Source: Candidatus Poribacteria bacterium
GTDB lineage: Bacteria; Poribacteria; WGA-4E; WGA-3G
DNA: 64,000 bases
Assembly (NCBI GenBank): GCA_965214095.1
Contig: OZ243938.1
Span: 2,464,001 to 2,528,000, forward strand
Direction: 5' to 3'
The notes beneath the pieces were generated by a model. It was not told where the DNA came from. It made no database searches and saw only the letters and a program-made list of their open reading frames with translations. Within the stretch, counting starts at the first letter, position 1, and every line of letters starts with the position of its first letter. The translations under genes were made by a program, and so were the position numbers. This document shows positions 6,207 to 31,835 of the stretch, one piece after another.

Positions 6207-6252
6207 GATTGTAAGTATCAACTTATGAAATCATTTTGATGAGAGATAAACA

Positions 6253-7473: not shown

Positions 7474-7607
7474 TCCGACAGATGTTACGGTTTTCAAGGT
7501 TAATTATCTAAACTATCACAGTAAATATGTGTCTAAACACAGACAAGTTTTACAAATAACCTAAATACAAGAATGTGTGCACTGCACAAACATAAGGAGT
7601 GAGTTAC

Positions 7608-8066: not shown

Positions 8067-8097
8067 ACCTTTGTTTTTAAATATAATAAATCCACAC

Positions 8098-8727: not shown

Positions 8728-8734
8728 ATGTATC

Positions 8735-9142: not shown

Positions 9143-9189
9143 ATAAAGTGTCTGTAGCAATACAAGACTGTTACTGTGGTAAAAGTATT

Positions 9190-10062: not shown

Positions 10063-10074
10063 CAAAAGGATAGG

Positions 10075-11673: not shown

Positions 11674-11714
11674 CAACCAATATTCATTATTGTTCATAAT
11701 AGAGGCAATCATAA

Positions 11715-13469: not shown

Positions 13470-13528
13470 CAGACAAATTCGCACTTCGTTGCACAAACCA
13501 ACCTACACAAGTAGGTGAGGATATAATC

Positions 13529-14878: not shown

Positions 14879-17874
14879 TGAAAATGTGCAGAAACGTTGT
14901 TTGTTCAAAGTGGATACATAAACTGAATACTTACATGGTTATTCTGGTGTGTTTAGGTACATTCCTCCTTATTCCGGGAGACCTATTCGCACAACGGGGT
15001 GGTCAGAGTACAATGGAAGTTGCTGAACGGGATGAGGAAACTGGTGAACCCTTAACGTTTAACTTCAACTTCACCAGTGATGAACTCAAAAATGTGTTTG
15101 AATGGCTTTCACGAGAAACCGACCTTACGATTATCGCAAGTGAAAACGATATTCAAGGGAAAAAATTCGCATTAATTAACCTCAGAAACGTCACGCTTGA
15201 TGAAGTCATAGAACATGTCAAAACGATTCTCGCTCAATATAACTTAACATTTGTTAAATCCAATAGCACCCTCATTGTGACTACTTTTGAAAAAGCTACT
15301 GTGATGAATGTACCGGTGAAAGTTATACAGGCAGATCCAGAACAAGTAGAAATGACTGATGAAATACAGACTTACATTATCCAATTGGAAAATGCCGCCG
15401 CAACAGAACAAGCCGGGGTTTTGAAACCTTTATTAAATAGACAGGCAAACATCTTTGCAGATTCAATGACAAACGCACTTGTCATCACAGATGTGTCATC
15501 TAACGTTCACAGAATCGTTTCAATTTTGCAATTCGCAGATGAAGGTGACCCTTCTCCATTAAAAATAGCTTTAATCCCACTTGCTTACGCGGACGCTGAA
15601 TCTCTAAAACAAACATTTGACAAAGTATTTGATGATAGCAATGAAGATGACACTCCCCCAGGAAGACAGGTTGCTATGAGTCCCGAGGAAATTAGGCAAG
15701 CTATTGAAGATGGCATTGGAATACCATTAGTTGAGGGAATGGTCAAGGTGGAGGCAGATAGCAGTTCAAATACGCTTATTATCAAAGCAGCTGAAGAAAA
15801 TATAACACTACTTAAAGAAATAATTCTTCATCTTGATAAAGCACCAACCCTTTCAACAGATATTCGCACATTTCGTCTCGAATATGCAATAGCAGAAGAT
15901 GTTGCCACAACACTTGAAGAGATAATCACTGGAGATAATATACAAGGTGGTGGGAGAAGAAGTTTTGACAGAGAAGATATTTTAGAAATGATGACATATC
16001 GCAGAAACCAAGGTAACACAAGTGATATTTTTCAAGGTATTGTTGGCTTGGTAAACATCTCTTATGACGAACGGTTGAACATCGTTATTATCTCTTCTGA
16101 TCCCCGCAATTTCACCATTATTGAGAAAATCATTGAAGTACTTGATCAACAGCAGACAGAAAATGAGTTCAAGATGTATCTGCTTGAATTTGCAGATGCT
16201 GTAACCCTAAAGGAGAACCTAACCCAACTGTTTGAAGGTGAGGATACAGGCGGTGGTAGCAGCCGAAGTTGGTGGGATTGGGATAGAAGGTCATCATCCA
16301 ACCAAGATACCGGTTTTGGGGTACAAGGCACTGTTCACATGGTTGAAGATATTAGACTGAATGCATTGCTCATTTCTACTTCTGCTCAGAATTTTGCAAT
16401 GATTGATGATCTGATCAAAAAACTTGATGTCAACCTACCTGACCAAGAATGGGGGTCAAAGATCTTTTATCTCAAATATGCTGATGCTGAAAATATCGCA
16501 AATCTAATAAACACACATTATCAAGGAAACCAAGACGATTTTAGTGGTGGAGATAGTTACTATTATTACAGATATACTCTGCCGCAACGTCAATCAACCC
16601 CGCAAGCACAAGGCTCACTCGCAGGTAATGTCGCAGCACAACCTTTAGCGAGTCACAATGCACTCATTGTTTCAACAGGAACAAAACGAAACTTTGAGAT
16701 GGTAGAAAGCTTTATTAAACAACTGGATATACCGACACCTCCGCCGATGGCTGAAGTTACTCAAATCATTCGTCTTGAATACGCAACGGCGGATGCACTT
16801 GTTCAGGTGCTTGAACAAGTGTGGCAAGAAGTGCAATCTGAGGATGAAGGTTCTGGTTTTCGAAGGTTTTTCAGTTCAAGATTTGGTGAGGAAGAACCGA
16901 CTGATATAAATTCACTCTTCGGTAAAGTCACTATTTATGCCGATCCAGATACAAACTCACTTGTTGTCACCACCCGCCGTCGTTATCTTGATCAGGTGAA
17001 AGCACTTATAAAAAGACTTGATTTCGTTAGAGGACAAGTGCGGATTGATATTAAAATCCTTGAAGTTACCCTTGATGAAACGACAAAACTCGGTATTGAA
17101 ATGGCTGCTAATGAAAAGAAACTTGGTGGTCTTGAACTCAGTCCGATTAACCCACTTATTGGGGATGCAAATGCTGAACTTGGACTTGCACAAGAAATTT
17201 CTGGTTTCAATTATAGTTTGGTTACCAAAGAATATATGGCACTGCTTCACACACTTATCCGTGAAAATAAAGTCAAAACACTTTCTACACCAACGATCAC
17301 GACACGCGATAGCCATGCTGCTACATGGAGCAGTGGACGCAGAATCCCATATCTCCAAAGCGTTGATACCAATAGTATCCTTGGAGATACCGCTACACAA
17401 CCGCTTTTCAACTACGATTTTATCGATCCACCTGTCGGTATTAACATATCACTCATACCTTATATCGCAAGATCACAAGCAGATGAAAATGGAAAACGAA
17501 CAATCGGATTAGATATTACAAATATCAGTGCCAGTAACTTTATTGAATTCACAGATTTTAATGCCCCAATAACAGATGATAACTCACTCAGTGTCTATAT
17601 TGACGTTGAAGATGGACAACAACTTATCGTCGGTGGTATTATTCGCAAGAAACAGAAACAGGTGGAAAACAAAGTGCCTATACTTGGCGATATTCCTTTA
17701 CTCGGAAGGCTCTTCAAAAGCACAGAAACCGAAGTTCAAGATACTGAGATTGTGTTCATTATTACACCGCACATCATAGATATAAAGAACCCTGCTGACC
17801 TTGAAAAACTGAAGCAGAAAGAGGCAGAGTGGCGAAAAAATGGACAGATTGATTTAGAGGAATCAACGAAATAG
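14878..17874 (+). CDS. gspD: secretin GspD, copy 1 (998 aa)
   Basis: Signal peptide, N0 domain, repeated LxYAxA NolW-like domains, QVRIDIKILEV, LSTPTITT, KVPILGDIPLLGRLFKS, IVFIITPHII. Confidence 0.93.
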   Translation: MKMCRNVVCSKWIHKLNTYMVILVCLGTFLLIPGDLFAQRGGQSTMEVAERDEETGEPLTFNFNFTSDELKNVFEWLSRETDLTIIASENDIQGKKFALINLRNVTLDEVIEHVKTILAQYNLTFVKSNSTLIVTTFEKATVMNVPVKVIQADPEQVEMTDEIQTYIIQLENAAATEQAGVLKPLLNRQANIFADSMTNALVITDVSSNVHRIVSILQFADEGDPSPLKIALIPLAYADAESLKQTFDKVFDDSNEDDTPPGRQVAMSPEEIRQAIEDGIGIPLVEGMVKVEADSSSNTLIIKAAEENITLLKEIILHLDKAPTLSTDIRTFRLEYAIAEDVATTLEEIITGDNIQGGGRRSFDREDILEMMTYRRNQGNTSDIFQGIVGLVNISYDERLNIVIISSDPRNFTIIEKIIEVLDQQQTENEFKMYLLEFADAVTLKENLTQLFEGEDTGGGSSRSWWDWDRRSSSNQDTGFGVQGTVHMVEDIRLNALLISTSAQNFAMIDDLIKKLDVNLPDQEWGSKIFYLKYADAENIANLINTHYQGNQDDFSGGDSYYYYRYTLPQRQSTPQAQGSLAGNVAAQPLASHNALIVSTGTKRNFEMVESFIKQLDIPTPPPMAEVTQIIRLEYATADALVQVLEQVWQEVQSEDEGSGFRRFFSSRFGEEEPTDINSLFGKVTIYADPDTNSLVVTTRRRYLDQVKALIKRLDFVRGQVRIDIKILEVTLDETTKLGIEMAANEKKLGGLELSPINPLIGDANAELGLAQEISGFNYSLVTKEYMALLHTLIRENKVKTLSTPTITTRDSHAATWSSGRRIPYLQSVDTNSILGDTATQPLFNYDFIDPPVGINISLIPYIARSQADENGKRTIGLDITNISASNFIEFTDFNAPITDDNSLSVYIDVEDGQQLIVGGIIRKKQKQVENKVPILGDIPLLGRLFKSTETEVQDTEIVFIITPHIIDIKNPADLEKLKQKEAEWRKNGQIDLEESTK

Positions 17875-18001
17875 GTGTTGATTTCATTTAAATCAAGCCT
17901 TGAAAGCAGACTGTTTTAAATAATGCTAACGCAACCTGACATGCTAAGATTTATCAAAACTATATCAATTTTTAAGTTCGAATAATTACGAGGAACTATT
18001 A

Positions 18002-20992
18002 ATGACATTGAAATTGCCTAAATTCTTGAATGCCTTACCTAAACAAAACCGCATATTAAGCATCTTTGTTCTGGTGTGCATCGGGTTATTCGTCCTTATA
18101 CCAGGGGATCTGTTTGCACAACGTGGTCAGGGAACAATGGAAGTTGCTGAACGGGATGAGGAAACTGGTGAACCCTTAACGTTTAACTTCAACTTCACCA
18201 GTGATGAACTCAAAAATGTGTTTGAATGGCTTTCAAGAGAAACTGACCTTACGATTATCGCAAGTGAAAACGATATTCAAGGGAAAAAATTCGCATTAAT
18301 TAACCTCAGAAACGTTACGCTTGATGAAGTCATAGAGCATGTCAAAACAATACTCGCTCAATACAACTTAACTTTTGTTAGATCCAATAGCACCCTCATT
18401 GTGACAACTTTTGAGAAAGCAAAAGTAATGAATGTACCTGTCAAAATCATAGAGGCTAATCCTGATCTGGTTGAAATGACCGATGAAATACAAACATATA
18501 TCATCCAATTAGTAAATGCATCAGCATCGGAACAAGTAGACAAATTGAAACCTTTATTGAATAGACAGGCAAACATCTTCGCTGACTCAACGACCAACGC
18601 ACTTATTATTACAGATGTGTCATCAAACATCCGTAGAATCGTCTCAATTTTGCAATTTGCAGATGAAGGCGACCCTTCTCCATTAAAGATAGCTTTAGTT
18701 CCACTCGCATACGCGGACGCTGAATCTCTACAACAAACACTTGAACAAGTATTTGAGGATAACGATGAAGATGACATACAACCAAGAGGTCAAGTCGGTA
18801 TGACCCCTGAGGAGATTAAACAAGCTATTGAACAAGGTTTAGGTGTGCCATTGGTTAAGGGAATGGTTAAAGTGGAGGCAGATAGCAGTTCAAATACCAT
18901 TATTCTTAAAGCCGCCGAAGACAATCTAATAATCCTTAAAGAAATAATTCTGCATCTTGATAAATCTCAAGGACTTCAGACAGAAATTCGCACTTATAGA
19001 CTACAGTATGCAATCGCAGAGGATGTCGCCACAATACTTGATCAGATTATTGTTGGTGAAAGCGATGCAGGTGATAGAGCAAGATTTGACAGAGAGGATA
19101 TGTTTAGATTACGCAGAGAACGCAGAGAACGAGGTCTATCAGTTGACCTTTTCCAAGGGATTATCGGACTTGTAAATATCACCAGTGATGATCGGTTGAA
19201 CATTGTAATTGTCTCTACTGACCCGCGGAATTATACTATCATTGAGAAAATTATTGAAGTGCTTGATCAAAAACAAACAGAAAATGAATTCAAGATGTAT
19301 CTACTTGAATTTGCTGATGCTACAACTCTCAAAGAACAATTAACCGCCCTGTTTGAAGGTGAGGATACGGGTGGTAGCGAACGGAATTGGTGGGATTGGG
19401 ATAGTAGATCATCATCAAATCAAGATACCGGTTTCGGTGTACAAGGAACTGTTCACATTGTAGAAAATATTAGACTCAATGCTTTGCTCATTTCTACTTC
19501 TGCTAACAATTTTCCGATGATAGATGATTTAATTGAGAAACTTGATGTTACCCTTCCCGACCAAGAGTGGGGGTCAAGAATCTTTTATCTCAAATATGCT
19601 GATGCTGAAAATATCGCAAATCTGATAAATACACATTACCAAGGTAACCAAGACGATTTTAGTGGCGGTAGTAGTTACTCCTACTACAGATATTATCTGC
19701 CACAACGTCAATCAACCCCACAAGCACAAGGTTCACTCGCAGGTAATGTCGCTGCTCAACCTTTAGCAAGTCATAATGCACTCATCGTATCTACAGGAAC
19801 AAAACGAAACTTTGAGATGGTAGAAAGTTTTATTGAGCAGCTTGATATACCCACGCCTGAAGAACAGGTAGAAGTCACCGATATAATTCGCCTTGAATAT
19901 GCAACTGCGGATTCTATTGCACAGTTGCTATCACAAGTTTGGCAGGACCAACAAGCTGAGGATGATGGGTTTGGTTTCTTTTTCTTTTATGACGATGATA
20001 ATCGCAATCAGGATGAATCGAGTGACATTAATTCACTTTATGGTAAGGTGACAGTCTATGCTGACCCAAATACGAACTCGCTTGTTGTTACGACTCGCCG
20101 CCGCTATCTTGAGCAGGTGAGAGCACTCATTAAACAACTTGATTTCGTCCGAGGGCAAGTGCGCATTGATATTAAGATCCTTGAAGTCACCCTTGATGAG
20201 ACAACAAAACTCGGTATTGAAGCAGCTGCCACTGAGAAGAGACTCGGTGGTCTTGAACTTAGTCCAATTAACCCACTCATCGGTGATGCCAATGCAAACC
20301 TTGGACTCGCGCAAGAAATTTCAGGTTTCAATTATAGTTTGGCTACGAAAGAATATATGGCACTACTTTATACACTCATCCGTGAAAATAAAGTCAAGAC
20401 GCTTTCAACACCGACAATCACAACGCGTGATAGTCGTCCGGCAACATGGAGTAGTGGACGCCGCATTCCATACCTACAAAGTGTAGATACCAATAGCATC
20501 CTTGGAGATACCGCCACACAACCGCTTTTCAACTACGATTTTATTGATCCACCAGTTGGTATTAATATTGCACTTACACCTCATATTGCAAAATCACTGG
20601 CTGGAGAAGACGGCAAACGGACAATCGGTTTAAATATAACAAATATCAGTGCAAGTAACTTCATTGAATTTACAGAGTTCAATGCGCCGATAACAGACGA
20701 CAATGCACTAAGTGCGTACGTTGATGTTGAAGATGGACAACAACTAATTGTAGGTGGTATCATTCGTAAAAAGCAGAAACAGGTAGAAAATAAAGTGCCT
20801 ATACTCGGAGATATTCCATTACTCGGACGGCTTTTCAAAAGCACAGAAACCGTCGCTGAAGATACAGAGATCGTCTTTATAATAACACCCCATATAATAG
20901 ACATCAAGAATCCAGAGGATATAAAAAAGTTGAGACAGACTGAGGATGATTGGCGAAAAAATGGAATGAACGAATTTGAGTACTCTGAATAA
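18002..20992 (+). CDS. gspD: secretin GspD, copy 2 (996 aa), tandem paralog
   Basis: Collinear with and highly similar to copy 1; same secretin motifs. Confidence 0.93.
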   Translation: MTLKLPKFLNALPKQNRILSIFVLVCIGLFVLIPGDLFAQRGQGTMEVAERDEETGEPLTFNFNFTSDELKNVFEWLSRETDLTIIASENDIQGKKFALINLRNVTLDEVIEHVKTILAQYNLTFVRSNSTLIVTTFEKAKVMNVPVKIIEANPDLVEMTDEIQTYIIQLVNASASEQVDKLKPLLNRQANIFADSTTNALIITDVSSNIRRIVSILQFADEGDPSPLKIALVPLAYADAESLQQTLEQVFEDNDEDDIQPRGQVGMTPEEIKQAIEQGLGVPLVKGMVKVEADSSSNTIILKAAEDNLIILKEIILHLDKSQGLQTEIRTYRLQYAIAEDVATILDQIIVGESDAGDRARFDREDMFRLRRERRERGLSVDLFQGIIGLVNITSDDRLNIVIVSTDPRNYTIIEKIIEVLDQKQTENEFKMYLLEFADATTLKEQLTALFEGEDTGGSERNWWDWDSRSSSNQDTGFGVQGTVHIVENIRLNALLISTSANNFPMIDDLIEKLDVTLPDQEWGSRIFYLKYADAENIANLINTHYQGNQDDFSGGSSYSYYRYYLPQRQSTPQAQGSLAGNVAAQPLASHNALIVSTGTKRNFEMVESFIEQLDIPTPEEQVEVTDIIRLEYATADSIAQLLSQVWQDQQAEDDGFGFFFFYDDDNRNQDESSDINSLYGKVTVYADPNTNSLVVTTRRRYLEQVRALIKQLDFVRGQVRIDIKILEVTLDETTKLGIEAAATEKRLGGLELSPINPLIGDANANLGLAQEISGFNYSLATKEYMALLYTLIRENKVKTLSTPTITTRDSRPATWSSGRRIPYLQSVDTNSILGDTATQPLFNYDFIDPPVGINIALTPHIAKSLAGEDGKRTIGLNITNISASNFIEFTEFNAPITDDNALSAYVDVEDGQQLIVGGIIRKKQKQVENKVPILGDIPLLGRLFKSTETVAEDTEIVFIITPHIIDIKNPEDIKKLRQTEDDWRKNGMNEFEYSE

Positions 20993-21030: not shown

Positions 21031-21060
21031 TGGGACGGGTGCTTAACTCGTCCCAATTTT
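21031..21060 (+). terminator. probable intrinsic terminator of the secretion operon
   Basis: TGGGACG(G)GT...ACTCGTCCCA hairpin followed by ATTTT. Confidence 0.6.
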
Positions 21061-21281: not shown

Positions 21282-21310
21282 TTGACAAATTTTATCACAC
21301 TTGCTATACT
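21282..21310 (+). promoter_or_regulatory. sigma-70 type promoter
   Basis: TTGACA-17 nt-TATACT upstream of the gene at 21538. Confidence 0.7.
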
Positions 21311-21537: not shown

Positions 21538-22410
21538 ATGAAAAGTTATATTGGTATTGTCATTGTTGTGCTTATGTTAAGTGCGACAATAGTTACAGCA
21601 AACGATCTTGCTATCTATTCTGGTCCCACAAATCCTGATTGGATTTCTGCTGGTGCTGTTGAGGAAAATACTGAAACAGTTATGACCGACGCTGGTGTAA
21701 AAGCACTCTTTAATAAGATTGAAAACTTTGGCGATGGTGACGAAATGGGTGATGACTCTCCACTTGGACAGTGGTGTGTTGAACACACAGGAAATGGACA
21801 GCAGGATGTTATTCTCCTTGCATGTGGTACATCTCCGAGTGCGCTATATCCGTTTCCCAATCTCAAACCAGATGGGTCAAACGTAGAGAACTTTATTGAA
21901 GCAGGAAACGTCGTTATCAACGTCGCTGACTGGATCTTCTACATGAGTTATGAAGGTGGTGTCCGCAGTGCAGATAACGCGGCAGCTGGTGCTGCAAATG
22001 TCTTTGACATCCCAGGATTAGATTTTGGTGAACGCGGTCAAGGAACTTTCGCTATGAAACCCACCGATTTAGGTGAAAAGTATATCCCTTCCCTGGCAAA
22101 TTTTAGTTCTAATCGACCATGGCATGTTGAACAGTTTGCCAATACAGACTGGGATTTAGTTATTTTTGCCGAAGCAGATGCAAATAACGCGGATCCCGCG
22201 GTTGCTATTAGCAAAGAATCTGGTGAAGATGGAACTGGTATGATTGCTGCGATGTGGCAGGCTGCAATACCGGTTTGGCAGGGGACAGACCCGCGTGGTA
22301 TCGGTGTAGTAGAATTCATCACGAATTGGTTATCTGAAAATGCGACATTGGATGTGCATGCAAATAATAAGTTGTCTACAACTTGGGGACACATCAAACA
22401 AGGTCGGTAA
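21538..22410 (+). CDS. secreted hypothetical protein with KLxTTWGxIK C-terminal tail
   Basis: AAGGAG RBS, Sec signal ending ...IVTA, ends LDVHANNKLSTTWGHIKQGR. Confidence 0.85.
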   Translation: MKSYIGIVIVVLMLSATIVTANDLAIYSGPTNPDWISAGAVEENTETVMTDAGVKALFNKIENFGDGDEMGDDSPLGQWCVEHTGNGQQDVILLACGTSPSALYPFPNLKPDGSNVENFIEAGNVVINVADWIFYMSYEGGVRSADNAAAGAANVFDIPGLDFGERGQGTFAMKPTDLGEKYIPSLANFSSNRPWHVEQFANTDWDLVIFAEADANNADPAVAISKESGEDGTGMIAAMWQAAIPVWQGTDPRGIGVVEFITNWLSENATLDVHANNKLSTTWGHIKQGR

Positions 22411-22425
22411 ACTGATTCATCTTAT

Positions 22426-22459
22426 GCGGGGACAGTGGTTGAACTGTTCCCGCTTTTTT
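22426..22459 (+). terminator. intrinsic terminator
   Basis: GCGGGGACAGT...ACTGTTCCCGC followed by TTTTTT, between convergent genes. Confidence 0.75.
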
Positions 22460-22464
22460 AATTC

Positions 22465-23136
22465 CTAACGTATATTCCGATATAGTTTCGCAAGTCTATC
22501 CAATGAGAACCCTATAGAATAAAGAAAGGTGATTAGCCAATTTTTTGCTGTTGTGTTGATAATACCGTTTCTTTCCCATCTGCGTGCAGAGATATGAATA
22601 TGCGGTTTCACCATTTTTGTCTTTCCTAACCTTCGCAACTCTTTAGAAAAACCCATCTCCTCCATAATCGGGACATCTGGAAATCCACCAATTTTTTGAA
22701 AGTCTGTTCGCCGGACGAAAATGCCGCTATCTCCGTAGAAAATCTTTAGATACTTACCACGCATGTTTGCAGATAACTCAATGAGACGATATAGTAAACT
22801 TTTCCCATCAATCTTTTGAAGAAATCCCCCACCAATGTACCCCGATGACAACGCTGCTTCTACTGCATTGAATGCTCCTTTTTCAAGCCAAACATCTGCG
22901 TGTAGGAAGATGAGGATATCGCCATTTGCTGCGTTTACGCCTGCATTTAATTGTTTTGCGCGTCCGCGTTCGGATTTGATTACTTTCCCATATTTTTCAG
23001 CAATTTGGACAGAATTGTCTGTGCTTCCACCATCAACAACAATGAGTTCATGTCCTTCCAATTCTGGTTGAAGTTGAGATAACGTTTTATCTAAAATCTT
23101 TGCTTCATTCAGGACGGGTATAATAACTGAAATCAT
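22465..23136 (-). CDS. GT2 glycosyltransferase (TIGR04283-like)
   Basis: ISVIIPVLNE, VVDGGSTD, GRAKQLNAG, FLHAD, YGDSGIF, GGFPDVPIMEE, SARRW. Confidence 0.88.
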   Translation of the reverse strand: MISVIIPVLNEAKILDKTLSQLQPELEGHELIVVDGGSTDNSVQIAEKYGKVIKSERGRAKQLNAGVNAANGDILIFLHADVWLEKGAFNAVEAALSSGYIGGGFLQKIDGKSLLYRLIELSANMRGKYLKIFYGDSGIFVRRTDFQKIGGFPDVPIMEEMGFSKELRRLGKTKMVKPHIHISARRWERNGIINTTAKNWLITFLYSIGFSLDRLAKLYRNIR

Positions 23137-23148
23137 TTTTCAACACTA

Positions 23149-23251
23149 TATAGTGAATTATAAATATAAGTTGACACTTTCGACCCACGGTAGGCGAGGT
23201 TTCCTAACCTCGCCGATGCAGAGTGTTCAAGTAATTTCAAAATCTACTATA
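23149..23251 (+). mobile_element. 103-bp TATAGT-ended MITE carrying one GTAG REP, copy 1 of 5
   Basis: ~30-bp imperfect TIRs (TATAGTGAATTATAAAT.../...ATTTCAAAATCTACTATA) around GTAGGCGAGGTTTCCTAACCTCGCC. Confidence 0.88.
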
Positions 23252-24965
23252 TCACGGCATTATTGATATATTGATTCAGTGCCAATATTGGAAAAACAGA
23301 AGCGTAGATTGGATCACCGTATCCCCCGATTACTTCCCAATAAATACCGACACAACTTTCTTGCCATGAACCTTCTTCTCGCTGTTGTTCAAGGAGAAAC
23401 TGAATGCCTTTTTGGGCTGCAGAACTATTTGCATCAACAAGTAACAATGCATAGGAACACCATGCGGTTTGCTCAACTGTGGTTCCAATCGGATTGCCAA
23501 ACATATCTTCTCCCCAACCACCGTCCTCATTTTGGGTTAGTTTTAGCCACTGCACCGCTCGTGTAATTTCAGGTGCGTCTTTGCATCCTGCTTTTACAAG
23601 TGCTGCAAGCGCGCATGCTGTCCCGTAGGTTCGCTTTGCTAACCAAAGGTCATCCCAATAGCCATCCTTATGTATGTTAGACCGAAGCCATTTTATTCCG
23701 TTGTCAACATAAACCTGACTTTCACCATGCACGAGTAACGCTTCAATGGCATGTGCTGTGATACTCACACATCCGACATCACCTTGTCCAGGTTGATATG
23801 TACTCCAACTTCCGTCTGTGCCTTGGTTCTGTTTTAGCCATTCGATTCCACGTTGAACAGCACTTTTAGCATCATCGGATTGTAGGTTTGCTCGTATGAT
23901 AGCGAGGGTAGCTAAGGCTGTGTCGTCTGCATCGCTTGGAAGTGTACTGTCGCGCATCCCAGAAAATGCCCATCCGCCGTTGTCATTTTGATGGTCAACA
24001 AGCCACTGTGCTCCTTTCTGGATTACTTCTGGATTGCCGTTATATCTTGTGTCTGCCTCCGTCAAAGCGATAATGCTCAAGCCTGTATCCCATACATTAA
24101 GGTTCAGTGCCTCTCGACAACCACCATCGGGATTCTTAGTATTCTGTAGCCATTCAATTCCCTTTTCAATCAATGCGGAAATATCGGAGTCTACATCCAT
24201 TTTTTTGCTGAGTTCAATGAGTGCTAAAACAGATAATGCGGTGATATAATTGACACGAAACCAACTGCCATCACTGAGAACCCGTTCTTTTAGCCAAGCC
24301 ACTAAAGCATTGATTATATCGGAACGTTCTGTGGTGTTTAGTTCTATCAGGATAAAAACCGGCACTAAGGTGTGTTGCTCAGCAATAAATAACTCATCAA
24401 ATAGTGATGTGTTGAACATGTCTACGGGTGGTAGTTTGTTTCGGGGCGGTTTCAGGACAGCACGCAATGCGGGGATCCGTGTAAGAAACTTAACAAATTT
24501 CATCAATGGCAATGCATTTTTTGAAACGGTCAATTTCTCCCAGTCATAACGATTGAATGCTGCATAGGCGAGTTTGACTAAAGCGAGATCAAGTGGATAA
24601 ATCGGTATACGTGATATACATTTCTCAAGCTGTGGTGTAGATTCGTTTTCACTGACCTGTTCCAAGATCAATCGGGAAAACAACGTAGCTTCAGAGTTCG
24701 TCTGATTTGCAGCATCCAATCCCCATGAACCGTGTTCGTTTTGGTTTTTTATGAACCAGTCAACTAATGTCGGTTCTGGCATTTCACCTTGGGCAAGTTG
24801 GATCCATGCATACGCACAAGATGGGAACGTGCTTGAGGAAAGTTGTCCTTCAAAGTTTCCATTCGGCTGCTGTTGTGTGAGCAAAAAGTCAATACTGCGT
24901 GTTAATGCAGATGTTGCTTGTTGGTTTATATCTGAGTTGGGTTGTGGTTTCTGTTCTTGATGCAT
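23247..24965 (-). CDS. squalene-hopene cyclase-like class II terpene cyclase (prenyltransferase/QW-repeat protein)
   Basis: About nine QW-type repeats (QNEHGSWG, QNDNGGWAF, QGTDGSWS, QNEDGGWGE, QREEGSW), NVWDT, and DADDTA (DxDD). Start at 24965 or 25007. Confidence 0.8.
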   Translation of the reverse strand: MHQEQKPQPNSDINQQATSALTRSIDFLLTQQQPNGNFEGQLSSSTFPSCAYAWIQLAQGEMPEPTLVDWFIKNQNEHGSWGLDAANQTNSEATLFSRLILEQVSENESTPQLEKCISRIPIYPLDLALVKLAYAAFNRYDWEKLTVSKNALPLMKFVKFLTRIPALRAVLKPPRNKLPPVDMFNTSLFDELFIAEQHTLVPVFILIELNTTERSDIINALVAWLKERVLSDGSWFRVNYITALSVLALIELSKKMDVDSDISALIEKGIEWLQNTKNPDGGCREALNLNVWDTGLSIIALTEADTRYNGNPEVIQKGAQWLVDHQNDNGGWAFSGMRDSTLPSDADDTALATLAIIRANLQSDDAKSAVQRGIEWLKQNQGTDGSWSTYQPGQGDVGCVSITAHAIEALLVHGESQVYVDNGIKWLRSNIHKDGYWDDLWLAKRTYGTACALAALVKAGCKDAPEITRAVQWLKLTQNEDGGWGEDMFGNPIGTTVEQTAWCSYALLLVDANSSAAQKGIQFLLEQQREEGSWQESCVGIYWEVIGGYGDPIYASVFPILALNQYINNAVI

Positions 24966-25119
24966 TTCTTGATATTCTAAAAATAAAATCTGTGTGAAGT
25001 ATATCATATATGGTTGAGATAGACAACTTTATTCTCTAAGTAACCCTAACAACAATTTTGAAATACTTGTCAAGCAACAGAATATGTGGTATGATTTTAT
25101 CTATGAAAGGAGTCATAAA

Positions 25120-26172
25120 ATGGCGATAGGATTAGGTGTTATTGGGATCAATCCGACCAATATGGGATCAACGGCAGCACTGCTTAAAGATGTACCGGAC
25201 CTTGATTACGAACTTCGTGGTATCTGTGCGAAACGTCCGGATGTGCTTGAAAACTATGCTAAGCAGATTGGTGTCGATTTTTGGACGACTGATTACCGTG
25301 CGTTGGTGCAGCGAGAGGATATTTCTGTTGTTGCTGTATATTCCCCTGACCATCTGCATGCAGAACATTGTATTGCTGCAATTGAAGCAGGAAAGCATGT
25401 AGTCTGCACAAAACCGATGGTAACATCCTTGGCAGATGCACAGAAGTTGGTAGATTTAGTCAGAAAGCACGGTGTCAAATTTCTTGTCGGTCAGACGATG
25501 CGTTTTGATCTGCAGTTTCTGACAATGAAGCGACTTTTTGACGATGGTGATTTGGGTGACATCATGGTTGCGGATGCATATTATGTTCATGACATGCGTG
25601 ATGTCTACGATTTCACACCGTGGCGACTCCAAGTGCCACAAGACCTTATGTTTGGTGGTGTTGTGCATCCTGTTGATATTTTACGCAGTTTTCTCGGTGA
25701 TGTTGAGGAGGTGCATGCCTACGGCACGAAAGGCACACTCACACCTGAATATCCGATTAATAACAACTTCTTTCTCAATCTGAAATTTGAAAGCGGACAG
25801 ATTGCAAGAGCGATGGGACTTTATGATGTCGTTCATCCACCGATGCCGATGATGCAGGTTTCCATTTACGGCACGAAAGGCACAATGATTGGCGACTTTA
25901 CAGATAATAAGGGTGGTCAGGTAAAATTGATGCTGGACAAGATGTCCGCGAGAGAACCTTTTGAGATGGCTTGTCCTCCTGAATTAGACACAAGTGTTTA
26001 TGGACATGGACAAACGGTAATACGATATATGCGTCATTTTCAACAGTGTCTTGAACAAGATTTGGAACCATCTCCGAATGTGGTTGATGGTGCAAAGTCT
26101 ATCGCAGTAGGGGTTGCTGCATGGGAGTCGGTTGAAACGGGTAAACCTATGAAAGTGTTTAACGATTTTTAG
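25120..26172 (+). CDS. Gfo/Idh/MocA family oxidoreductase
   Basis: SPDHLHAEH, AGKHVVCTKPM, VGQTMRF, GVVHPVD; AGGAG RBS before ATG 25120. Confidence 0.9.
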   Translation: MAIGLGVIGINPTNMGSTAALLKDVPDLDYELRGICAKRPDVLENYAKQIGVDFWTTDYRALVQREDISVVAVYSPDHLHAEHCIAAIEAGKHVVCTKPMVTSLADAQKLVDLVRKHGVKFLVGQTMRFDLQFLTMKRLFDDGDLGDIMVADAYYVHDMRDVYDFTPWRLQVPQDLMFGGVVHPVDILRSFLGDVEEVHAYGTKGTLTPEYPINNNFFLNLKFESGQIARAMGLYDVVHPPMPMMQVSIYGTKGTMIGDFTDNKGGQVKLMLDKMSAREPFEMACPPELDTSVYGHGQTVIRYMRHFQQCLEQDLEPSPNVVDGAKSIAVGVAAWESVETGKPMKVFNDF

Positions 26173-26184
26173 TATAGACATTTG

Positions 26185-26308
26185 TAAGCAATATTAAATA
26201 ATAATCTTCCGACTTTTTCGGCAGATGACGACACCGAGTTCGTAGGGGCCGGGTTTCCCCGCCCGCTATCAATGGACAATGTGCATATCTAATATTCAAA
26301 CTTGCTTA
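26185..26308. mobile_element. MITE-like element with TAAGCAA ends carrying a GTAG REP
   Basis: Left end TAAGCAATATTAAATA versus right-end reverse complement TAAGCAAGTTTGAATA; internal GTAGGGGCCGGGTTTCCCCGCCC. Confidence 0.55.
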
Positions 26309-26340
26309 AGAGCATTTCTAATAGAAAACGCCACATTTTT

Positions 26341-26364
26341 GTAGCATAAACTGCCAGTTTGTGC
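26341..26364 (+). repeat. GTAG REP hairpin (CACAAACT type)
   Basis: GTAGCATAAACT-GCC-AGTTTGTGC; same type as 52056 and its inverted partner ending at 52226. Confidence 0.55.
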
Positions 26365-26448
26365 AATCCTTCAAGACATCCTTAACAAATGTTAATGGGA
26401 TAAACATTTATAGAAATGGTATAACTATAGATCAAGGACGTTATATTT

Positions 26449-28203
26449 ATGAAATTATTGTTTTATTCACTTATTTTTATTCTTATATCTACAATTTCTG
26501 TTGCTGAGGAAGCAGATTCTTTTGGGACTCCACCGTGGCAACCTGCAGGTAAATATACACATAGCGACATCCGTGAAAGTTCCGGAATCGTTGCAAGTCG
26601 GCAGTTTGATGGTGTCTACTGGACATTGAATGACTCGGGTAATCCTGCCGTCCTTTATGCGACTAAACGGAATGGTGAATTAATCCAAGAAATAAAAGTG
26701 CGTGGTACACGCAATTTCGACTGGGAAGCACTCAGTATTGACGACAAAGGACAACTCTGGATCGGTGACATCGGCAACAATAGCCGAATGCGATTTGACT
26801 TGAATGTGTCTGTTGTGAAGGAACCAAATCCGTTCACTGAAACAGAAACAGAGATCATTGCAAAATATCCTTATAAATATCCTGACAAAAATGTAGATGC
26901 AGAAGGTCTGTTTATTGTTAATGGTATACCTTATATTGTCTCTAAAGAACAATCAACTGCGGTCCTTCACCGTTTCCCCGCCTTGAAAGCAAACGAGAAA
27001 CAGGTATTAGAACGTGTCGGTGAATTTGCTGAAGCAAGATTAGTTACAGGTGCAGGTATCTCAGAGGACGGGAAGCAGTTAGCTGTCTGCACCTACAATT
27101 CCTTATGGGTGTATGATGTTACCGGTGATAACTTAGCACAGACGATTAAAGGTAAACCTTGGATATTGCCACACAATTTTCAAGGAGAAGCAATTTGTTT
27201 TGAGGGTCACAATCTCTATCTAACAAACGAAGCACGGGATATTTATGTCCTTCCACAATTTTGGTATGAAAAGCAGTGGAAATTGCCACCAAAGAACACT
27301 CAATCGGCTATATCCCTTTTAGTCAAAGAAAACTCGGATGGATATAAGTTGGAAAACTATCGTGATGCGGGTATTGATATAGATGGAGGACATGTTGCAT
27401 TGAATGCGAAAGCAGTTGGTGCTGAAGTACATCATAAGATTGAAATTCAGCACAGAAACATATACCAAATCAGTGCAGTTATGACTCAAGGACCTGAATA
27501 TGGACTTGCAGAACTCACAGTAAATGGCAAAGTAGTTGGACAACCTAATGATTACTACCATCCTAAACTGGTTGCGGGGACGTTGGTAGTATTTGGCAAA
27601 GTCCCGTTGAATCAAGGTGAGAATCAGATAGTCCTGAAGAATGTTGGGAAATCAACCGAGGCGACAGGATACAAAATTGGTGTCGATTCCTTTCAGATAT
27701 TACATGCCTCTCCGTTCGTGCGGAAATACATGGTTTTAGGTCCATTTCCAAAGGCAGATGCGGCCCCGACTGTTCCATCGGTTTCATCTGAAAAACACCT
27801 AAACTTGAACGACACTTACGCAGGATTAGATGGAAAGACAATTCGTTGGCGTGAGGCAGAGACCCGAACGAGTGGCATGCTGGATTTACGTTCAAACATC
27901 GGTATGAATACAGGAGTTGTTGGATATACGGTTACTTACATCTATGCGCCAAAAGCGATGGACACTACCATGCTGTTAGGTAGCGATGAGACGGTTACGG
28001 TTTGGTTAAACGGTACAGAAATCCACAGAAAACGCGTCTACCGTCGTATCACACGGGATGCAGATGTCATTCCATGCAAGTTGAAGTCAGGATGGAACGA
28101 GGTATTGTGTAGTGTTGAGCAGAACAGTTGGACATGGGCACTGTATCTACGTTTTACAGATGTAGACGGTGTGCTGAAATATAGTCCGCATCCCAACGAT
28201 TAG
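26449..28203 (+). CDS. secreted multidomain protein (propeller-like N-terminus, beta-sandwich/PA14-like C-terminus)
   Basis: Signal peptide; ESSGIVAS...WTLNDSGN, DWEAL, IGDIGNN, DAEGL, QGEAI; C-terminal LGSDETVTVWLNG...LKSGWNEV. Confidence 0.75.
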   Translation: MKLLFYSLIFILISTISVAEEADSFGTPPWQPAGKYTHSDIRESSGIVASRQFDGVYWTLNDSGNPAVLYATKRNGELIQEIKVRGTRNFDWEALSIDDKGQLWIGDIGNNSRMRFDLNVSVVKEPNPFTETETEIIAKYPYKYPDKNVDAEGLFIVNGIPYIVSKEQSTAVLHRFPALKANEKQVLERVGEFAEARLVTGAGISEDGKQLAVCTYNSLWVYDVTGDNLAQTIKGKPWILPHNFQGEAICFEGHNLYLTNEARDIYVLPQFWYEKQWKLPPKNTQSAISLLVKENSDGYKLENYRDAGIDIDGGHVALNAKAVGAEVHHKIEIQHRNIYQISAVMTQGPEYGLAELTVNGKVVGQPNDYYHPKLVAGTLVVFGKVPLNQGENQIVLKNVGKSTEATGYKIGVDSFQILHASPFVRKYMVLGPFPKADAAPTVPSVSSEKHLNLNDTYAGLDGKTIRWREAETRTSGMLDLRSNIGMNTGVVGYTVTYIYAPKAMDTTMLLGSDETVTVWLNGTEIHRKRVYRRITRDADVIPCKLKSGWNEVLCSVEQNSWTWALYLRFTDVDGVLKYSPHPND

Positions 28204-28417
28204 TACAAATTCACCAAATTAGACCTTTTTCCGCTTTAATTCCACAAAATTCTAATAATTACCCAAATTTTTGACATTTTGAACTTGATTTTTTTGGACA
28301 GGGTTTGGTATAACCATTCTATGTCCTGCATGTAACAGGCGATTCTAAATGAAGTTTATTGCTTAATGTGATTTACCTTTTCATCAGACATATTCCAAAT
28401 AGTAAGAAGGTATAAGC

Positions 28418-29122
28418 ATGTATCGTGATTTTTTGACCAGTAAGTGGGTTCTTGGCGGGTTTGCTTTCCTGATAGTGTTTGGCGTATCATGTGTCTTCTG
28501 GTATCATTATGATACTGCCCCCTACAAACGAGATGCAGCTGAAACTGCTGAACTCATGAATCAATTAAAGCAATCAAGAAATGTTCAAAAGGAGGTTAAG
28601 TCTACACCAGTTTCCCCTCCTATTGAAAATAGGGTTGATAATATAAATGAAGAAAAACAAGAGACTACAGTGGATGCAGTTGGCAAAACCGAACAATCTT
28701 CCCTACCCAAAAAGAAAAATGCAAAGGTGCGAATGTCACCGCACGGTTTTGGGGCTTATCCTCAAATTCCTGATGGGGCACCGGTTGCGGAATTTGAGGA
28801 AACTGATAGTGTTAATATGGAACTTCTCGGGCGTGTAATAGTTAAAGCATGGAATGATGGCAAAAGATTTGAAGGCGCTTTTATTGATGGTGATACAGGA
28901 AAGGTTTATCTAAATTACTCTAACGTCTTGTATGTCGAATATTCTGAAGATATAGACGAGGAGACAGGTGAAGTTACGATAGAGATTAGCAGTGTCACTG
29001 GTGCAGCTTCTACGCAAGAAGCTAGTAGATTAGTTCTTGATGGTTACACACCACCAGGATATACACTTATTGATATTACTGAAGTAGGTATCAATCCTTA
29101 TGATTATTTAGATTTACATTAG
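28418..29122 (+). CDS. membrane-anchored hypothetical protein
   Basis: Single N-terminal TM, low-complexity linker, MSPHGFGAYP...GINPYDYLDL domain. Confidence 0.75.
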   Translation: MYRDFLTSKWVLGGFAFLIVFGVSCVFWYHYDTAPYKRDAAETAELMNQLKQSRNVQKEVKSTPVSPPIENRVDNINEEKQETTVDAVGKTEQSSLPKKKNAKVRMSPHGFGAYPQIPDGAPVAEFEETDSVNMELLGRVIVKAWNDGKRFEGAFIDGDTGKVYLNYSNVLYVEYSEDIDEETGEVTIEISSVTGAASTQEASRLVLDGYTPPGYTLIDITEVGINPYDYLDLH

Positions 29123-29142
29123 ACAGTAAAAGGAGTAATAAA

Positions 29143-29705
29143 ATGTTTAAGAAAAATTTGGTAAGTTTCTGTATATTTGTTCTGACAATTAGTTTGTTCA
29201 CTGTACAAGCACACTGGGTTGAGGATCCCGGTCCAAGCATCATTGAGGGTGATGAGAACAACCTTCATCAATCTGATGGTGGCGTTTTTTCGGTGGTATG
29301 ATGCAGTCAGAATGGAAAATTGCTGATCTCAACGATGCAATTGATGATTCTGAAGGTTTTGAATCATTAACTGCTCAAGTTTACTTCAGGAAATCGACTG
29401 ATATTAGTACGATTCCAGACGAAACTAGAGGGAAGGCTTACTGTCAAGTTTGGTGTGCCAAGGAAGTCAGCGATGGTATTACTAAAGGTAGTTATGATGT
29501 TCACGCTAAAGCACGCGGACGGCTTTGGTGGCGAGGTGACAGGCATGATGACGAATTTCAAGGTGGCATTAGCAAGCAAGCCGAAAGGGAAGCAGTACAC
29601 AGAAGATATATAGGACGTCCTACCTATAGCGGTGTACACCTTTGGGGAAAAGCATTTGTTAAGTGTCAAGCAGGTGAACTTGAACTTGAAATGGAATGGC
29701 ATTAG
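29143..29705 (+). pseudogene. secreted hypothetical protein apparently split by a frameshift (52-aa signal-peptide ORF 29143-29301 plus ORF 29298-29705)
   Basis: AAAGGAG RBS then MFKKNLVSFCIFVLTISLFTVQA; one extra T in the T6 tract at 29285-29290 would fuse both frames. Confidence 0.55.
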
Positions 29706-29802
29706 AAGACCAATCTGTATATGAGGAAACCTTATGCCGTAAATGTAATACCATTTCTAATAGAGAATATCTCATTATTGACAATGAATAACAAAGTCAA
29801 TT

Positions 29803-29850
29803 CTTTTGTGGAACGCGGATGACTATTAATACATCCGCGTTCCACAAAAG
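29803..29850. promoter_or_regulatory. perfect 19-bp inverted repeat abutting an RBS
   Basis: CTTTTGTGGAACGCGGATG-10 nt-CATCCGCGTTCCACAAAAG; the 3' arm runs into AAGGAG. Confidence 0.7.
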
Positions 29851-29860
29851 GAGTTTCCAC

Positions 29861-30886
29861 GTGTCACAAAAATATAGCAACCATAAATCCCTTTATAGTG
29901 TCTCCAAGGTATTTATTGTAATTTTTCTCCTTTTCCCCATGGTTTCTCATTCAAAGATTGTCTTTTCATCAAAACGCAGCGATGGTAAAACCCGACATCT
30001 TTATGTTATGGAAGACAATGGCACAAATGTTCAAAAAATTACGAACTCAAAATTCTATGACAGATCCCCTCGTTGGTTTCCAGATGGAAAACAGATCCTT
30101 TTTGAAAGAGACTTAACGTTTGGTAATGGTGGCAAATTTGATGCACAGATATTTAAAGTAGATGCAAACGACCGTTATGAACAATTGCTTATTGCTGATC
30201 ATCCGAGTAACAGACAACCTGCAATTTCCCCGGATGGCAAACTCATTGCCTTTAATAGCAAACGTACAGGTGAATGGGATATTTTTCTACTGAACCTTGA
30301 AAATCAACAACTGACACAATTGACAGACAACCTTGGAAAGGGATGGTCCAATAGGATGGATTGGTCTCCAGATGGAAAAAAGATAGTTTACGAACATGAA
30401 GGTGACGATGGTGAAACTATTCATATAATGAATTCCGATGGCACGGGAAAGAAGAGGTTAAGTCCACGACGACCAGGCACTTTTTTTCTGGGTGCACCAC
30501 GTTGGTCGCCATCCGGTAAATATATTATGTATCCAGAAATGGAAAGGACAAGGGATCTTAAAAACATAGTTCGAATGGACCTCATAATTCTGAATGTATT
30601 ATCAAAGAACTTGGATGTCCATGAATTTCCAAGAGAGAGTCTTCTTGCTTACACTTGTTGGATGGGAGACGACCAGACTGTCCTATTATCTCTCAAGGAT
30701 GATTGGACTAATCCAGAATCCAATTACGAAATCTACCAATATGACCTCAACAGTAAAAGACTCACAAACCTAACCAATGAACCTAGTGGAGATTATGCAC
30801 CGAGTTGGATTAGTGGACCTCTCACGGTTTTAGCATTGGACAAACTGACTATTCGTTGGGCACAACTCAAAGCCATTTATAAATAG
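29861..30886 (+). CDS. TolB-like (PD40/WD40) beta-propeller protein with C-terminal KLxxxWAxLK tail
   Basis: Repeated PxWSPDGK motifs; GTG start after AAGGAG; ends LTVLALDKLTIRWAQLKAIYK. Confidence 0.87.
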   Translation: MSQKYSNHKSLYSVSKVFIVIFLLFPMVSHSKIVFSSKRSDGKTRHLYVMEDNGTNVQKITNSKFYDRSPRWFPDGKQILFERDLTFGNGGKFDAQIFKVDANDRYEQLLIADHPSNRQPAISPDGKLIAFNSKRTGEWDIFLLNLENQQLTQLTDNLGKGWSNRMDWSPDGKKIVYEHEGDDGETIHIMNSDGTGKKRLSPRRPGTFFLGAPRWSPSGKYIMYPEMERTRDLKNIVRMDLIILNVLSKNLDVHEFPRESLLAYTCWMGDDQTVLLSLKDDWTNPESNYEIYQYDLNSKRLTNLTNEPSGDYAPSWISGPLTVLALDKLTIRWAQLKAIYK

Positions 30887-30968
30887 ACCTGAGTGAAAAA
30901 AATATGTGGATGCATATAGTTATTCATCAACATACGCTGCTAAAGTGATATCAAATTACCCCATGATA

Positions 30969-31835
30969 TCACATTCCAAAGTCAATCCTATCACTCTTCA
31001 GGTTTCCCCATGTTGTCGCATATTTCCCATCGGGTTCAACATTGAGAGGTTGTGCAATCTTCGCGAAATCTGCTTCATCAAAAGCCGAATTATATACGAG
31101 GACATCGTCAATGATGCCTTCAAACCAACCGACATTGCTTAGATCTTCAACACCATCGTGGTAAATGGTTTTCTGGGTAACATAGCCGATTGAAGTATCG
31201 TTAGTGTGTGAAAACAACTGACCACCAGATTCTTTCCCGACAAGTTTACCGTCTAACCATATTTCAAACTTATCATTTTCAACTTTATCAGTAGTATCAC
31301 GTAGGACTAAGGCAACATGGTGCCAGCGATCTGCTTTAATTTTCTTTGACATCCAGGCACCGTCCCAGTTATATTGGGCACGATTCCAACCCCCTACATA
31401 TACTTCCCCTTTATGGACATAGACACATAATCCGCGTGTTGCGCCACCTTCTTGAAAGATGACTTGCTTCTCGTTCTTACTGATGTCTCTACAGTTGAAA
31501 AAGGCTGACACTGTTCGATCACTATATGGACCACCTGTGTTGATAAATGGCGTATCTGGGAATTTAATACCATCGTCAATGCCATCAAACTCCAATGCTT
31601 TGTCGTAAATACCTTCAACGGCATTGGGTTGTCCGACAATTTGCCCGTTTATCTTGTTTCCTGATATATCATTTACACTTCCATCATCAAATGTCCATTG
31701 TGCTGCGACCGTTGCTTCATCTCTTTCTGCTTCCACACGCGTAATAGGGTGAATAACTAATACAACAGCAATAATACAGAAAAGAATTGTGAATGGAAAC
31801 TTATTGTTCTTGCGTTTAGTAATTTGATGAACCAT
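30969..31835 (-). CDS. LamG/concanavalin A-like jellyroll protein with C-terminal KxATTWGxLK tail
   Basis: WTFDDG, ALEFDG, WHHVALV, IWLDGK, FEGIIDDV; ends LNVEPDGKYATTWGNLKSDRIDFGM. Confidence 0.88.
   Translation of the reverse strand: MVHQITKRKNNKFPFTILFCIIAVVLVIHPITRVEAERDEATVAAQWTFDDGSVNDISGNKINGQIVGQPNAVEGIYDKALEFDGIDDGIKFPDTPFINTGGPYSDRTVSAFFNCRDISKNEKQVIFQEGGATRGLCVYVHKGEVYVGGWNRAQYNWDGAWMSKKIKADRWHHVALVLRDTTDKVENDKFEIWLDGKLVGKESGGQLFSHTNDTSIGYVTQKTIYHDGVEDLSNVGWFEGIIDDVLVYNSAFDEADFAKIAQPLNVEPDGKYATTWGNLKSDRIDFGM

Follow-up and report, generated by a model that had tools for sequence, protein, structure and literature searches.

Here we describe a short C-terminal tail shared by three putatively exported proteins of different fold that are encoded within a 64,000-nt stretch of the Candidatus Poribacteria bacterium genome GCA_965214095.1 (contig OZ243938.1, 2,464,001-2,528,000). 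This whole stretch is hereafter called the window, and positions are window positions unless contig C1 is given. The tail is a portable and terminal tag, predicted to be disordered, that is found phylum-wide on exported proteins and has its sequence in common with a module at the junction between passenger and C-terminal domain (CTD) in type IX secretion system (T9SS) cargo. It looks like a hitherto undescribed address label related to the type IX pathway, and not to the type II secretion system (T2SS)-like genes beside which one of the three tail genes lies. The reading that we favour, at a probability of about 0.35, is that the tail is a minimal, CTD-less sorting signal of a T9SS-like surface-sorting pathway; the cleavage step that may form part of it is, taken alone, less probable.

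Three exported proteins of the window end in a common tail

The source genome comprises 5.2 Mb with 41% G+C and is 94.5% complete. A first-pass annotation of the window had proposed that three signal-peptide proteins of different folds end in a common tail, and inspection of the open reading frames (ORFs) and their ends confirmed this; the hydrophobic N-terminal stretch present in all three was recognized by eye and by a heuristic, not by SignalP. The genes and their tails (lengths in amino acids, aa) are as follows.

21538..22410, + strand: tail-bearing exported protein 1, 290 aa, no Pfam/NCBIfam family, ends ...LDVHANNKLSTTWGHIKQGR
22348..22407, + strand: tail of protein 1 (last 20 aa, LDVHANNKLSTTWGHIKQGR), ORF end read directly
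29819..30886, + strand: tail-bearing PD40/TolB-like beta-propeller protein, 355 aa from the first start, Pfam PD40/TolB-like repeats, ends ...LTVLALDKLTIRWAQLKAIYK
30821..30883, + strand: tail of the TolB-like protein, last 21 aa, A instead of G after W
30969..31835, - strand: tail-bearing LamG protein, 288 aa, Pfam Laminin_G_3, ends ...LNVEPDGKYATTWGNLKSDRIDFGM
30972..31046, - strand: tail of the LamG protein, last 25 aa, 8 residues beyond the invariant K

On all three ORFs the tail reads L-x-V-(E/S/D)-(P/A)-x-x-K-L-T-T-T-W-(G/A)-x-(L/I)-K, followed by 1-10 residues. The motif originally noted is thus present but longer, since it also takes in V at position -10, P or A at -8 and K at -5 relative to the W. 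For the TolB-like ORF, the start at 29861 used in the first-pass annotation is an alternative start in the same frame, internal to 29819-30886. No Pfam or NCBIfam model covers the tail on any of the three window proteins at E<=0.1.

The genes lying between the three tail genes are unrelated and encode a GT2 glycosyltransferase, a squalene-hopene-cyclase-like protein and a Gfo/Idh/MocA oxidoreductase. Also between them, at 26449-28203, lies the gene of a 584-aa signal-peptide protein with a weak phytase-like match and without the tail; tagging does not extend to every exported protein of the neighbourhood. The LamG tail gene is adjoined by a DDE_Tnp_1 transposase gene (32246-33565).

The tail is a portable, terminal tag throughout the source genome

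In a six-frame translation of the source genome, a core regular expression for the tail gave 217 matches. Within ORFs of >=100 aa (n=169), 147 matches lie <=15 aa from the stop, and 124 of these only 0-4 aa from it. A hidden Markov model (HMM) built from 145 tails and used with a cut-off of E<1e-3 for counting ORFs retrieved 152 ORFs, in 150 of which the match ends 0-7 aa from the C-terminus. This is far beyond chance, and the genome-wide HMM search that had been suggested as a check of the first-pass proposal accordingly returned many matches, nearly always terminal and mostly on proteins with a hydrophobic N-terminus. Such an N-terminal stretch is found in 134/152 bearers as compared to 917/2620 control ORFs (>=250 aa), and most of the 18 bearers without it are either short fragments or ORFs listed with a start too far upstream.

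An alignment of 149 tails, numbered with the W as position 0, gave the following composition (counts out of 149).

Position -12: L 71
Position -10: V 125
Position -9: E 57, S 31, D 22
Position -8: P 84, A 44
Position -5: K 134
Position -4: L 107
Position -2: T 103
Position 0: W 149
Position +1: G 101, A 44
Position +3: L 83, I 51
Position +4: K 149

Behind the K at +4 come 1-10 further residues (mode 3, never 0), among which R, S, K and Q are frequent; tails end in R, K or Q in 95/149 cases, and in Y or F in 20/149.

Once the tail is removed, the 152 bearers fall into 25 single-linkage sequence groups, the largest of which hold 62 (LamG), 26 (PD40/WD40) and 16 (LRR/metallopeptidase/LTD) members. 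A Pfam scan of 20 passengers, i.e. 19 group representatives and one further large member, identified LamG, PD40/WD40 propellers, an LRR-metallopeptidase, LTD giants, beta-helix/PMP, PA14, CBM9, CBM4_9, LDL-B, DUF1349 and DUF4960, along with several passengers without a family, and among these scanned bearers, too, no Pfam or NCBIfam model covers the tail. The original idea of a portable C-terminal tag for export, anchoring or cleavage on otherwise unrelated proteins is therefore borne out as far as portability and terminal position are concerned, as is the statement that the tail is no transmembrane helix and differs in this from LPXTG and PEP-CTERM signals: the tail contains no transmembrane segment.

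Tail genes tend to cluster, 82/152 having another one <=3 kb away. Around the 152 genes a single neighbouring family is enriched, a multi-copy secreted repeat protein of ~550 aa that is FG-GAP/VCBS-like by eye; 7/10 of its homologues are at most two genes away from a tail gene, in many cases immediately upstream of it and in the same orientation, an operon-like arrangement. Examples, in positions of contig C1, are given below.

276375-277988: secreted repeat protein
1045418-1047082: secreted repeat protein
2414057-2415706: secreted repeat protein
4470427-4472127: secreted repeat protein

The repeat protein is probably a functional partner of the passengers and not the reader of the tail. A further contig of the assembly, C2 (32 kb), carries no tail gene; with 64% G+C against the chromosome's 41%, it is possibly foreign or mis-binned.

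The same module precedes the type IX CTD in a subset of cargo

Internal occurrence of the motif had been named beforehand as an observation that would speak against a sorting tag. In the source genome only 2 of the 152 tails are internal, and each of them directly precedes a TIGR04183 CTD. More broadly, the module is found directly before QNYPNPFNPETWIP, which represents the CTD start Q-N-(Y/F)-P-N-P-F-N-P-E-T-W, in 4/76 CTD ORFs of the source genome, and in two of these four L replaces the W.

To this we can add a search of 101 genomes of the phylum with the 131-aa tail-plus-CTD end of one protein as query, from which the 30 best loci were read. Twenty-nine are CTD ORFs, of which 26 match the tail HMM (21 at E<1e-3 in that small set) and 3 are ordinary CTDs; since the loci were chosen by likeness to a tail-containing query, 26/29 is not a frequency, and the unbiased figure is 4/76. 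Within the 26 pre-CTD modules, which come from genera g1, g2, g7, g8 and g9, the spacing between the K and the CTD is ungapped. The W is kept in 12/26 and replaced by L or F in 14/26, versus 0/149 tail-only proteins in which it is lost. Tail-only proteins end where the CTD would begin. The module is thus a regular feature of the place where passenger and CTD meet in some T9SS-type cargo (WD40 and FG-GAP-like passengers).

Structure prediction with AlphaFold2 (AF2) is in line with a tail that is no part of either neighbouring fold. For the LamG protein of the window (12-row alignment), the jelly roll was folded, with blocks at a predicted local distance difference test score (pLDDT) of 65-88, and residues 261-288 were without secondary structure at pLDDT 34-40. 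For the tail-plus-CTD end (25-row alignment), the CTD reached pLDDT 79-94 and the module 52-56. Because pLDDT is low in both models, the tail would behave as a free linear motif both alone and before a CTD, and is predicted to be a strand of neither passenger nor CTD.

The tail is phylum-wide, and a related form occurs in other phyla

All 151 sampled genomes of the Poribacteria phylum carry the tail, with 34-346 first-look candidates each. When a 34-position profile was run against 1.84 billion representative proteins, 410 matched at E<=1e-3; among the best 150 of these 410, nearly all matches lie at the very C-terminal end, many of them on short metagenomic fragments. We read 32 of these matches, of which 27 are true C-terminal bearers and four (P0039, P0107, P0113 and P0148) have an internal tail followed by unrelated sequence. 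The representative P0040 (1054 aa), with four internal matches, was rejected as a false positive, its repeat covering only the first half of the profile.

The variant T-W-G-x-(I/V)-K-x-L-Y-R was sought with a degenerate DNA pattern (estimated chance expectation ~0.1), which matched at least 130 loci in the species-genome collection, and nearly all listed loci belong to metagenome-assembled genomes labelled Eisenbacteria, Krumholzibacteria, Latescibacteria, Gemmatimonadota or Fibrobacteraceae. Of 80 loci that were read, 68 have an ORF ending immediately behind the LYR (TWGxIKxLYR-stop), and 78 have one that ends within <=6 aa of it. Profile-to-profile comparison of the two tail types with hhalign gave a probability of 93.7% (E 1.8e-7, 17 columns). 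The HMM of the other-phyla tail had no match at E<0.01 in the source genome (best 0.061), where tail ORFs make up 46 of its top 100. A common origin of the two types is therefore likely, though not proven, because the profile-profile match is strong but the plain HMM of one type is not significant on the other. In a second phylum, that of genome G153, the related tail is present in 112/121 genomes and missing in 9.

T9SS-like machinery is encoded in the genome

The source genome encodes a T9SS-like set, given here in positions of contig C1.

2569438-2576028, 2636073-2643639, 2779829-2786311 and 3092996-3098221: T9SS-like set of a SprA-like ORF, three PorU-like C25 giants and a PorV/PorQ-family gene
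SprA-like ORF, only 41 kb past the window end: 2196 aa, 145 bits, below the cut-off of 200

The three PorU-like C25 giants score 422, 353 and 368 bits with the PorU model (cut-off 420), and each of them is composed of Propeptide_C25, Peptidase_C25 and a terminal FlgD_ig/TIGR04183 domain of its own. One of their genes is adjoined by the PorV/PorQ-family gene (96.9 bits, cut-off 90). Cargo is plentiful as well, with 77 TIGR04183 matches over cut-off in the genome (77-79 ORFs by CTD models) and about 76 CTD cargos. A PorU-like orthologue was found in 41/41 sampled genomes of the phylum, and the catalytic His and Cys are invariant in 16 sequences.

C25 peptidases accompany the related tail outside the phylum, being present in all examined genomes that have it (5/5) and in 121/121 genomes of the second phylum. 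The Peptidase_C25 family is strongly expanded in genomes G151-G155 and in the second phylum, with 2 to >14 matches per genome, mostly in ORFs of 1100-2000 aa. A complex prediction of the PorU-like C25 catalytic domain (16-row alignment) with tails (23-row alignment) gave a score of 0.01 (mark 0.32) and counts neither way.

Proposed readings: a minimal sorting signal or a docking tag

In the model that we favour, the tail would be a stand-alone, disordered short linear motif whose ~17 conserved residues read V-(E/S/D)-(P/A)-x-x-K-L-T-T-T-W-(G/A)-x-(L/I)-K and which after Sec export would be recognized in trans by the component that normally handles the passenger-CTD junction. The leading candidates for this reader are a PorV-family shuttle and a PorU-type C25 sortase. 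The protein would then be brought to, or kept at, the cell surface, and cleavage would probably take place behind the invariant Lys, freeing the variable stub of 1-10 residues; for the reading of the tail by T9SS-like parts, for the cleavage and for the final location of the proteins, these are steps that we infer.

Several observations fit such a model. As the W can be lost when a CTD follows, the job of the tail may overlap with that of the CTD, that is, it would concern the same sorting machinery and not a need arising after CTD removal, and the difference in W loss described above would fit a tail partly redundant with the CTD. Cleavage behind the K by a clan CD peptidase would agree with the invariance of this residue, with the presence of at least one residue after it in every tail and with three PorU-like C25 proteins that seem catalytically intact by sequence. 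The predicted disorder, both alone and before a CTD, is what would be expected for a motif read in trans. PorU is described as a sortase-like CTD peptidase (PMC4560394), and for Prevotella intermedia a further study reports a cleavage-site motif at the N-terminal edge of CTDs (PMC11969387).

There are also points that weigh against this reading. In T9SS export as it is known, cargo has to carry a folded CTD of ~60-100 aa that contains motifs B, D and E (PMC11969387), and because the tail has none of these features the outer-membrane crossing of tail-only proteins is left unexplained. PorU cleavage in P. gingivalis is reported to be sequence-independent (PMC4804311), so that the known mechanism does not call for a dedicated motif. 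Models of the motor proteins GldL and GldM found no match in the source genome, although no control genome matched them either; the local T9SS may thus be atypical, whether motor-less or divergent. Tail genes are not adjacent to the SprA-like or the PorU/PorV-like genes, the nearest being ~10-16 kb away. Within the second phylum, PorV-family genes occur in 121/121 genomes (none over the PorV2 cut-off), and both C25 and PorV-family are also found in all 9 tail-less genomes, so that they do not discriminate these from the 112 tail-positive ones. A strict DNA pattern for the tail-plus-CTD arrangement gave 0 matches in 5 other-phyla genomes, which is weak evidence given the fixed spacing that the pattern imposes. 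Neither co-variation nor gene adjacency, in short, singles out a reader.

The most specific version of the proposal holds that a PorU-type C25 transpeptidase of a motor-less T9SS-like apparatus reads the ~17-residue tail, cuts behind the Lys and couples the protein to the surface. It would do so for 100-300 proteins per Poribacteria genome and, with the variant tail, in Eisenbacteria-, Krumholzibacteria- and Latescibacteria-like phyla, and would represent a new minimal signal class in diderms; in this full form we consider it unlikely.

The main competitor, possible but somewhat less probable than a sorting signal, is a non-covalent docking or retention tag that is independent of the T9SS: the disordered tail would bind an envelope receptor, a cell-wall polymer or lipopolysaccharide and hold lectin-like proteins in place without being cleaved. 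An invariant W and K in a disordered peptide are what a binding motif typically shows, most passengers have folds that bind glycans or proteins, and the fixed LYR-stop end of the other-phyla variant resembles the reading of a free terminus more than a leaving group. If docking were needed after CTD removal, the W should persist before CTDs, yet it is lost in 14/26 of these modules; moreover, no repeated receptor-like partner was found around the tail genes, the sole enriched neighbour being the secreted repeat family.

The neighbouring T2SS-like operon

The first-pass annotation had also suggested that the tail might be a linear signal read by the T2SS-like machine with long secretins encoded nearby, which appears improbable in view of the results below. 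The elements concerned are the following.

4329..20992, + strand: T2SS-like operon with GspE, GspF, GspG, three pseudopilins, GspK-like, PilM-like, a 449-aa ORF without assignment and two tandem secretins of ~1000 aa
14878..17874 and 18002..20992, + strand: the two tandem secretins, ~1000 aa, each with STN domain, six Secretin_N repeats and Secretin domain
21031..21055, + strand: terminator-like hairpin after the second secretin gene (consensus scan only)
21282..21310, + strand: promoter-like site ahead of tail gene 1, TTGACA-17-TATACT, 11 of 12 (consensus scan only)

Tail gene 1 starts only 545 bp after the second secretin. Between the two lie the terminator-like and promoter-like consensus matches, and the window as a whole is not enriched for tail genes (3 versus 1.85 expected from genome density; Poisson P(>=3)=0.28), both of which speak against a functional link. 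The long secretin is present in 150/151 genomes of the phylum, the sole miss being 73% complete. Phylogenetic profiling against the long secretin, which had been suggested as a check, turned out to be uninformative within the phylum: tail (151/151) and long secretin are both near-universal, so that no correlation can be computed, and the PorU-like gene (41/41) is universal as well.

For synteny, the 20 kb downstream of the secretin were scanned with the tail HMM in 20 genomes. In family f1, 11 such stretches contain 27 tail ORFs, which form a conserved same-strand array of 3-4 genes located 0.3-17 kb from the secretin, an arrangement that would favour a link. In other families the array is missing, with 3 tail ORFs in 9 stretches versus ~5 expected from source-genome density, and the adjacency to the secretin is therefore family-level synteny. 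Protein 1 itself was not found as an orthologue in family f3 (0/18 genomes), though secretin and tails both occur there.

Outside the phylum, GspG (PF08334) matched in 42/121 genomes of the second phylum, i.e. 40/112 tail-positive and 2/9 tail-less ones. It went unmatched in 72/112 tail-positive genomes, tail-rich ones included. Among five further tail-positive genomes outside the phylum, reached via loci on long records, GspG was found in 1/5, and the secretin ORFs measured 388-709 aa. This comparison assumes that both tail types are signals of the same kind, for which the hhalign probability of 93.7% speaks. The tag is thus not tied to this T2SS, and the original link to the operon did not hold up; the operon is context and lies outside the tag system as far as tested. 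For Poribacteria alone, the T2SS could conceivably serve as a mere exit route.

With regard to the operon itself, the tandem secretins are mutually 82% identical, and most of the genomes sampled from the genus to which the window belongs share the duplication. In sister genus g2 a single long-secretin copy is usual, and some other genera have 2-3 matches. The GspK-like minor pseudopilin (10075-11673; 74.8 bits, below the cut-off of 130) is fused to two ComEA-type helix-hairpin-helix repeats, which is unusual for a component of a T2SS.

Improbable alternatives: acceptor lysine, degradation tag or relic

Lysines of pilin motifs are used as acceptors in Gram-positive pili, and the invariant Lys of the tail might by analogy be an acceptor and not a cleavage site, with a sortase-like PorU joining CTD cargo, by its newly formed C-terminus, to the Lys side chain of tail proteins. 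The K is invariant in 149/149 tails, and PorU accepts various amines as nucleophiles, with peptides and glycine from the medium being attached (PMC4560394). Such cross-links are hypothetical, however, the terminal position of the module and its place before CTDs would be left unaccounted for, and tail-only proteins would still have to reach the surface, all of which makes this option very improbable.

A degradation or quality-control tag for a periplasmic tail-specific protease, or a functionless relic of CTD loss, is similarly hard to credit. Tail-only proteins end exactly where a CTD would start, as truncation would leave them, but the tail is conserved more strictly without a CTD than with one, and ~100-300 first-look candidates per genome across the whole phylum, with purifying selection seen, do not look like decay. 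Protein 1 is a case in point: its orthologues (270-340 aa) keep the tail-only form across the phylum, where it is stable in 81/101 genomes, and none has clearly switched to tail-plus-CTD, with three longer weak matches among them. Prc-type proteases prefer non-polar C-terminal ends, unlike the polar or basic residues in which the tails end.

Significance of the tail

C-terminal sorting signals set the destination of whole classes of surface proteins, and each newly found one has led to a new processing machine, as with sortase, exosortase, rhombosortase and PorU. Searches of the literature on Poribacteria, sorting signals, type IX secretion and PorU cleavage sites, and for motif strings, did not find a description of the tail. 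It marks ~3% of the predicted proteins in a major sponge-symbiont phylum, and its related form is carried by hundreds of proteins in several uncultured phyla of soil and sediment. The bearers are for the most part lectin-like or repeat proteins, which probably make contact with the host matrix or with polymers, and the reader, once known, would show how these bacteria display binding proteins. If the tail is indeed a sorting signal, a T9SS-type pathway might use a signal far shorter than any known CTD, and a PorU-read tail would be the equivalent of a sortase motif for these phyla. For annotation, the tail HMM would already pick out a large and coherent group of envelope proteins at present labelled 'hypothetical' or 'LamG domain protein'.

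Comparison with known systems

Like the tripartite signals of the LPXTG/sortase, PEP-CTERM/exosortase and GlyGly-CTERM/rhombosortase systems, the tail is a short, portable, near-terminal motif followed by basic residues, with many substrates per genome. Unlike them, it lacks a transmembrane segment behind the motif, where 1-10 residues follow that are for the most part polar or basic. The exosortase model PF09721 had no match in the 94.5% complete source genome; sortase and rhombosortase were not searched.

With T2SS substrates the tail proteins have in common that folded passengers are exported by Sec, and a T2SS-like operon lies beside one tail gene. For T2SS substrates no linear signal is known, and tail-positive genomes of other phyla are mostly without a GspG match. 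The tail does not fit type I secretion signals, which belong to proteins without an N-terminal signal peptide, as a hydrophobic N-terminus is found in 134/152 bearers. Nor does it fit the beta-signal of outer-membrane proteins, a terminal aromatic residue closing a beta-barrel, as the tails end in Y or F in only 20/149 cases and the passengers are soluble folds.

The T9SS type A CTD (TIGR04183/PF18962) resembles the tail in its C-terminal position on signal-peptide proteins with many unrelated passengers, in the co-occurrence with PorU-like, PorV-family and SprA-like genes, and through the module located exactly at the passenger-CTD junction. It differs in length (~60-100 aa versus 17-25 aa for the tail), in its Ig-like sandwich, where the tail is disordered in AF2 models, and in its motifs B, D and E, which the tail does not have. 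TIGR04183, PF18962 and FlgD_ig accordingly gave no match on the three window proteins at E<=0.1, while the same models match 77-79 other ORFs of the genome.

Finally, clan CD holds transpeptidases with C-terminal recognition motifs, such as legumain/butelase (Asn-His-Val) and GPI (glycosylphosphatidylinositol) transamidase, and the C25 peptidases PorU and gingipains belong to the same clan, the gingipains cutting after Lys or Arg. Like the motifs of these enzymes, the tail would present a short C-terminal leaving group after a fixed residue, its cleavage being putative.

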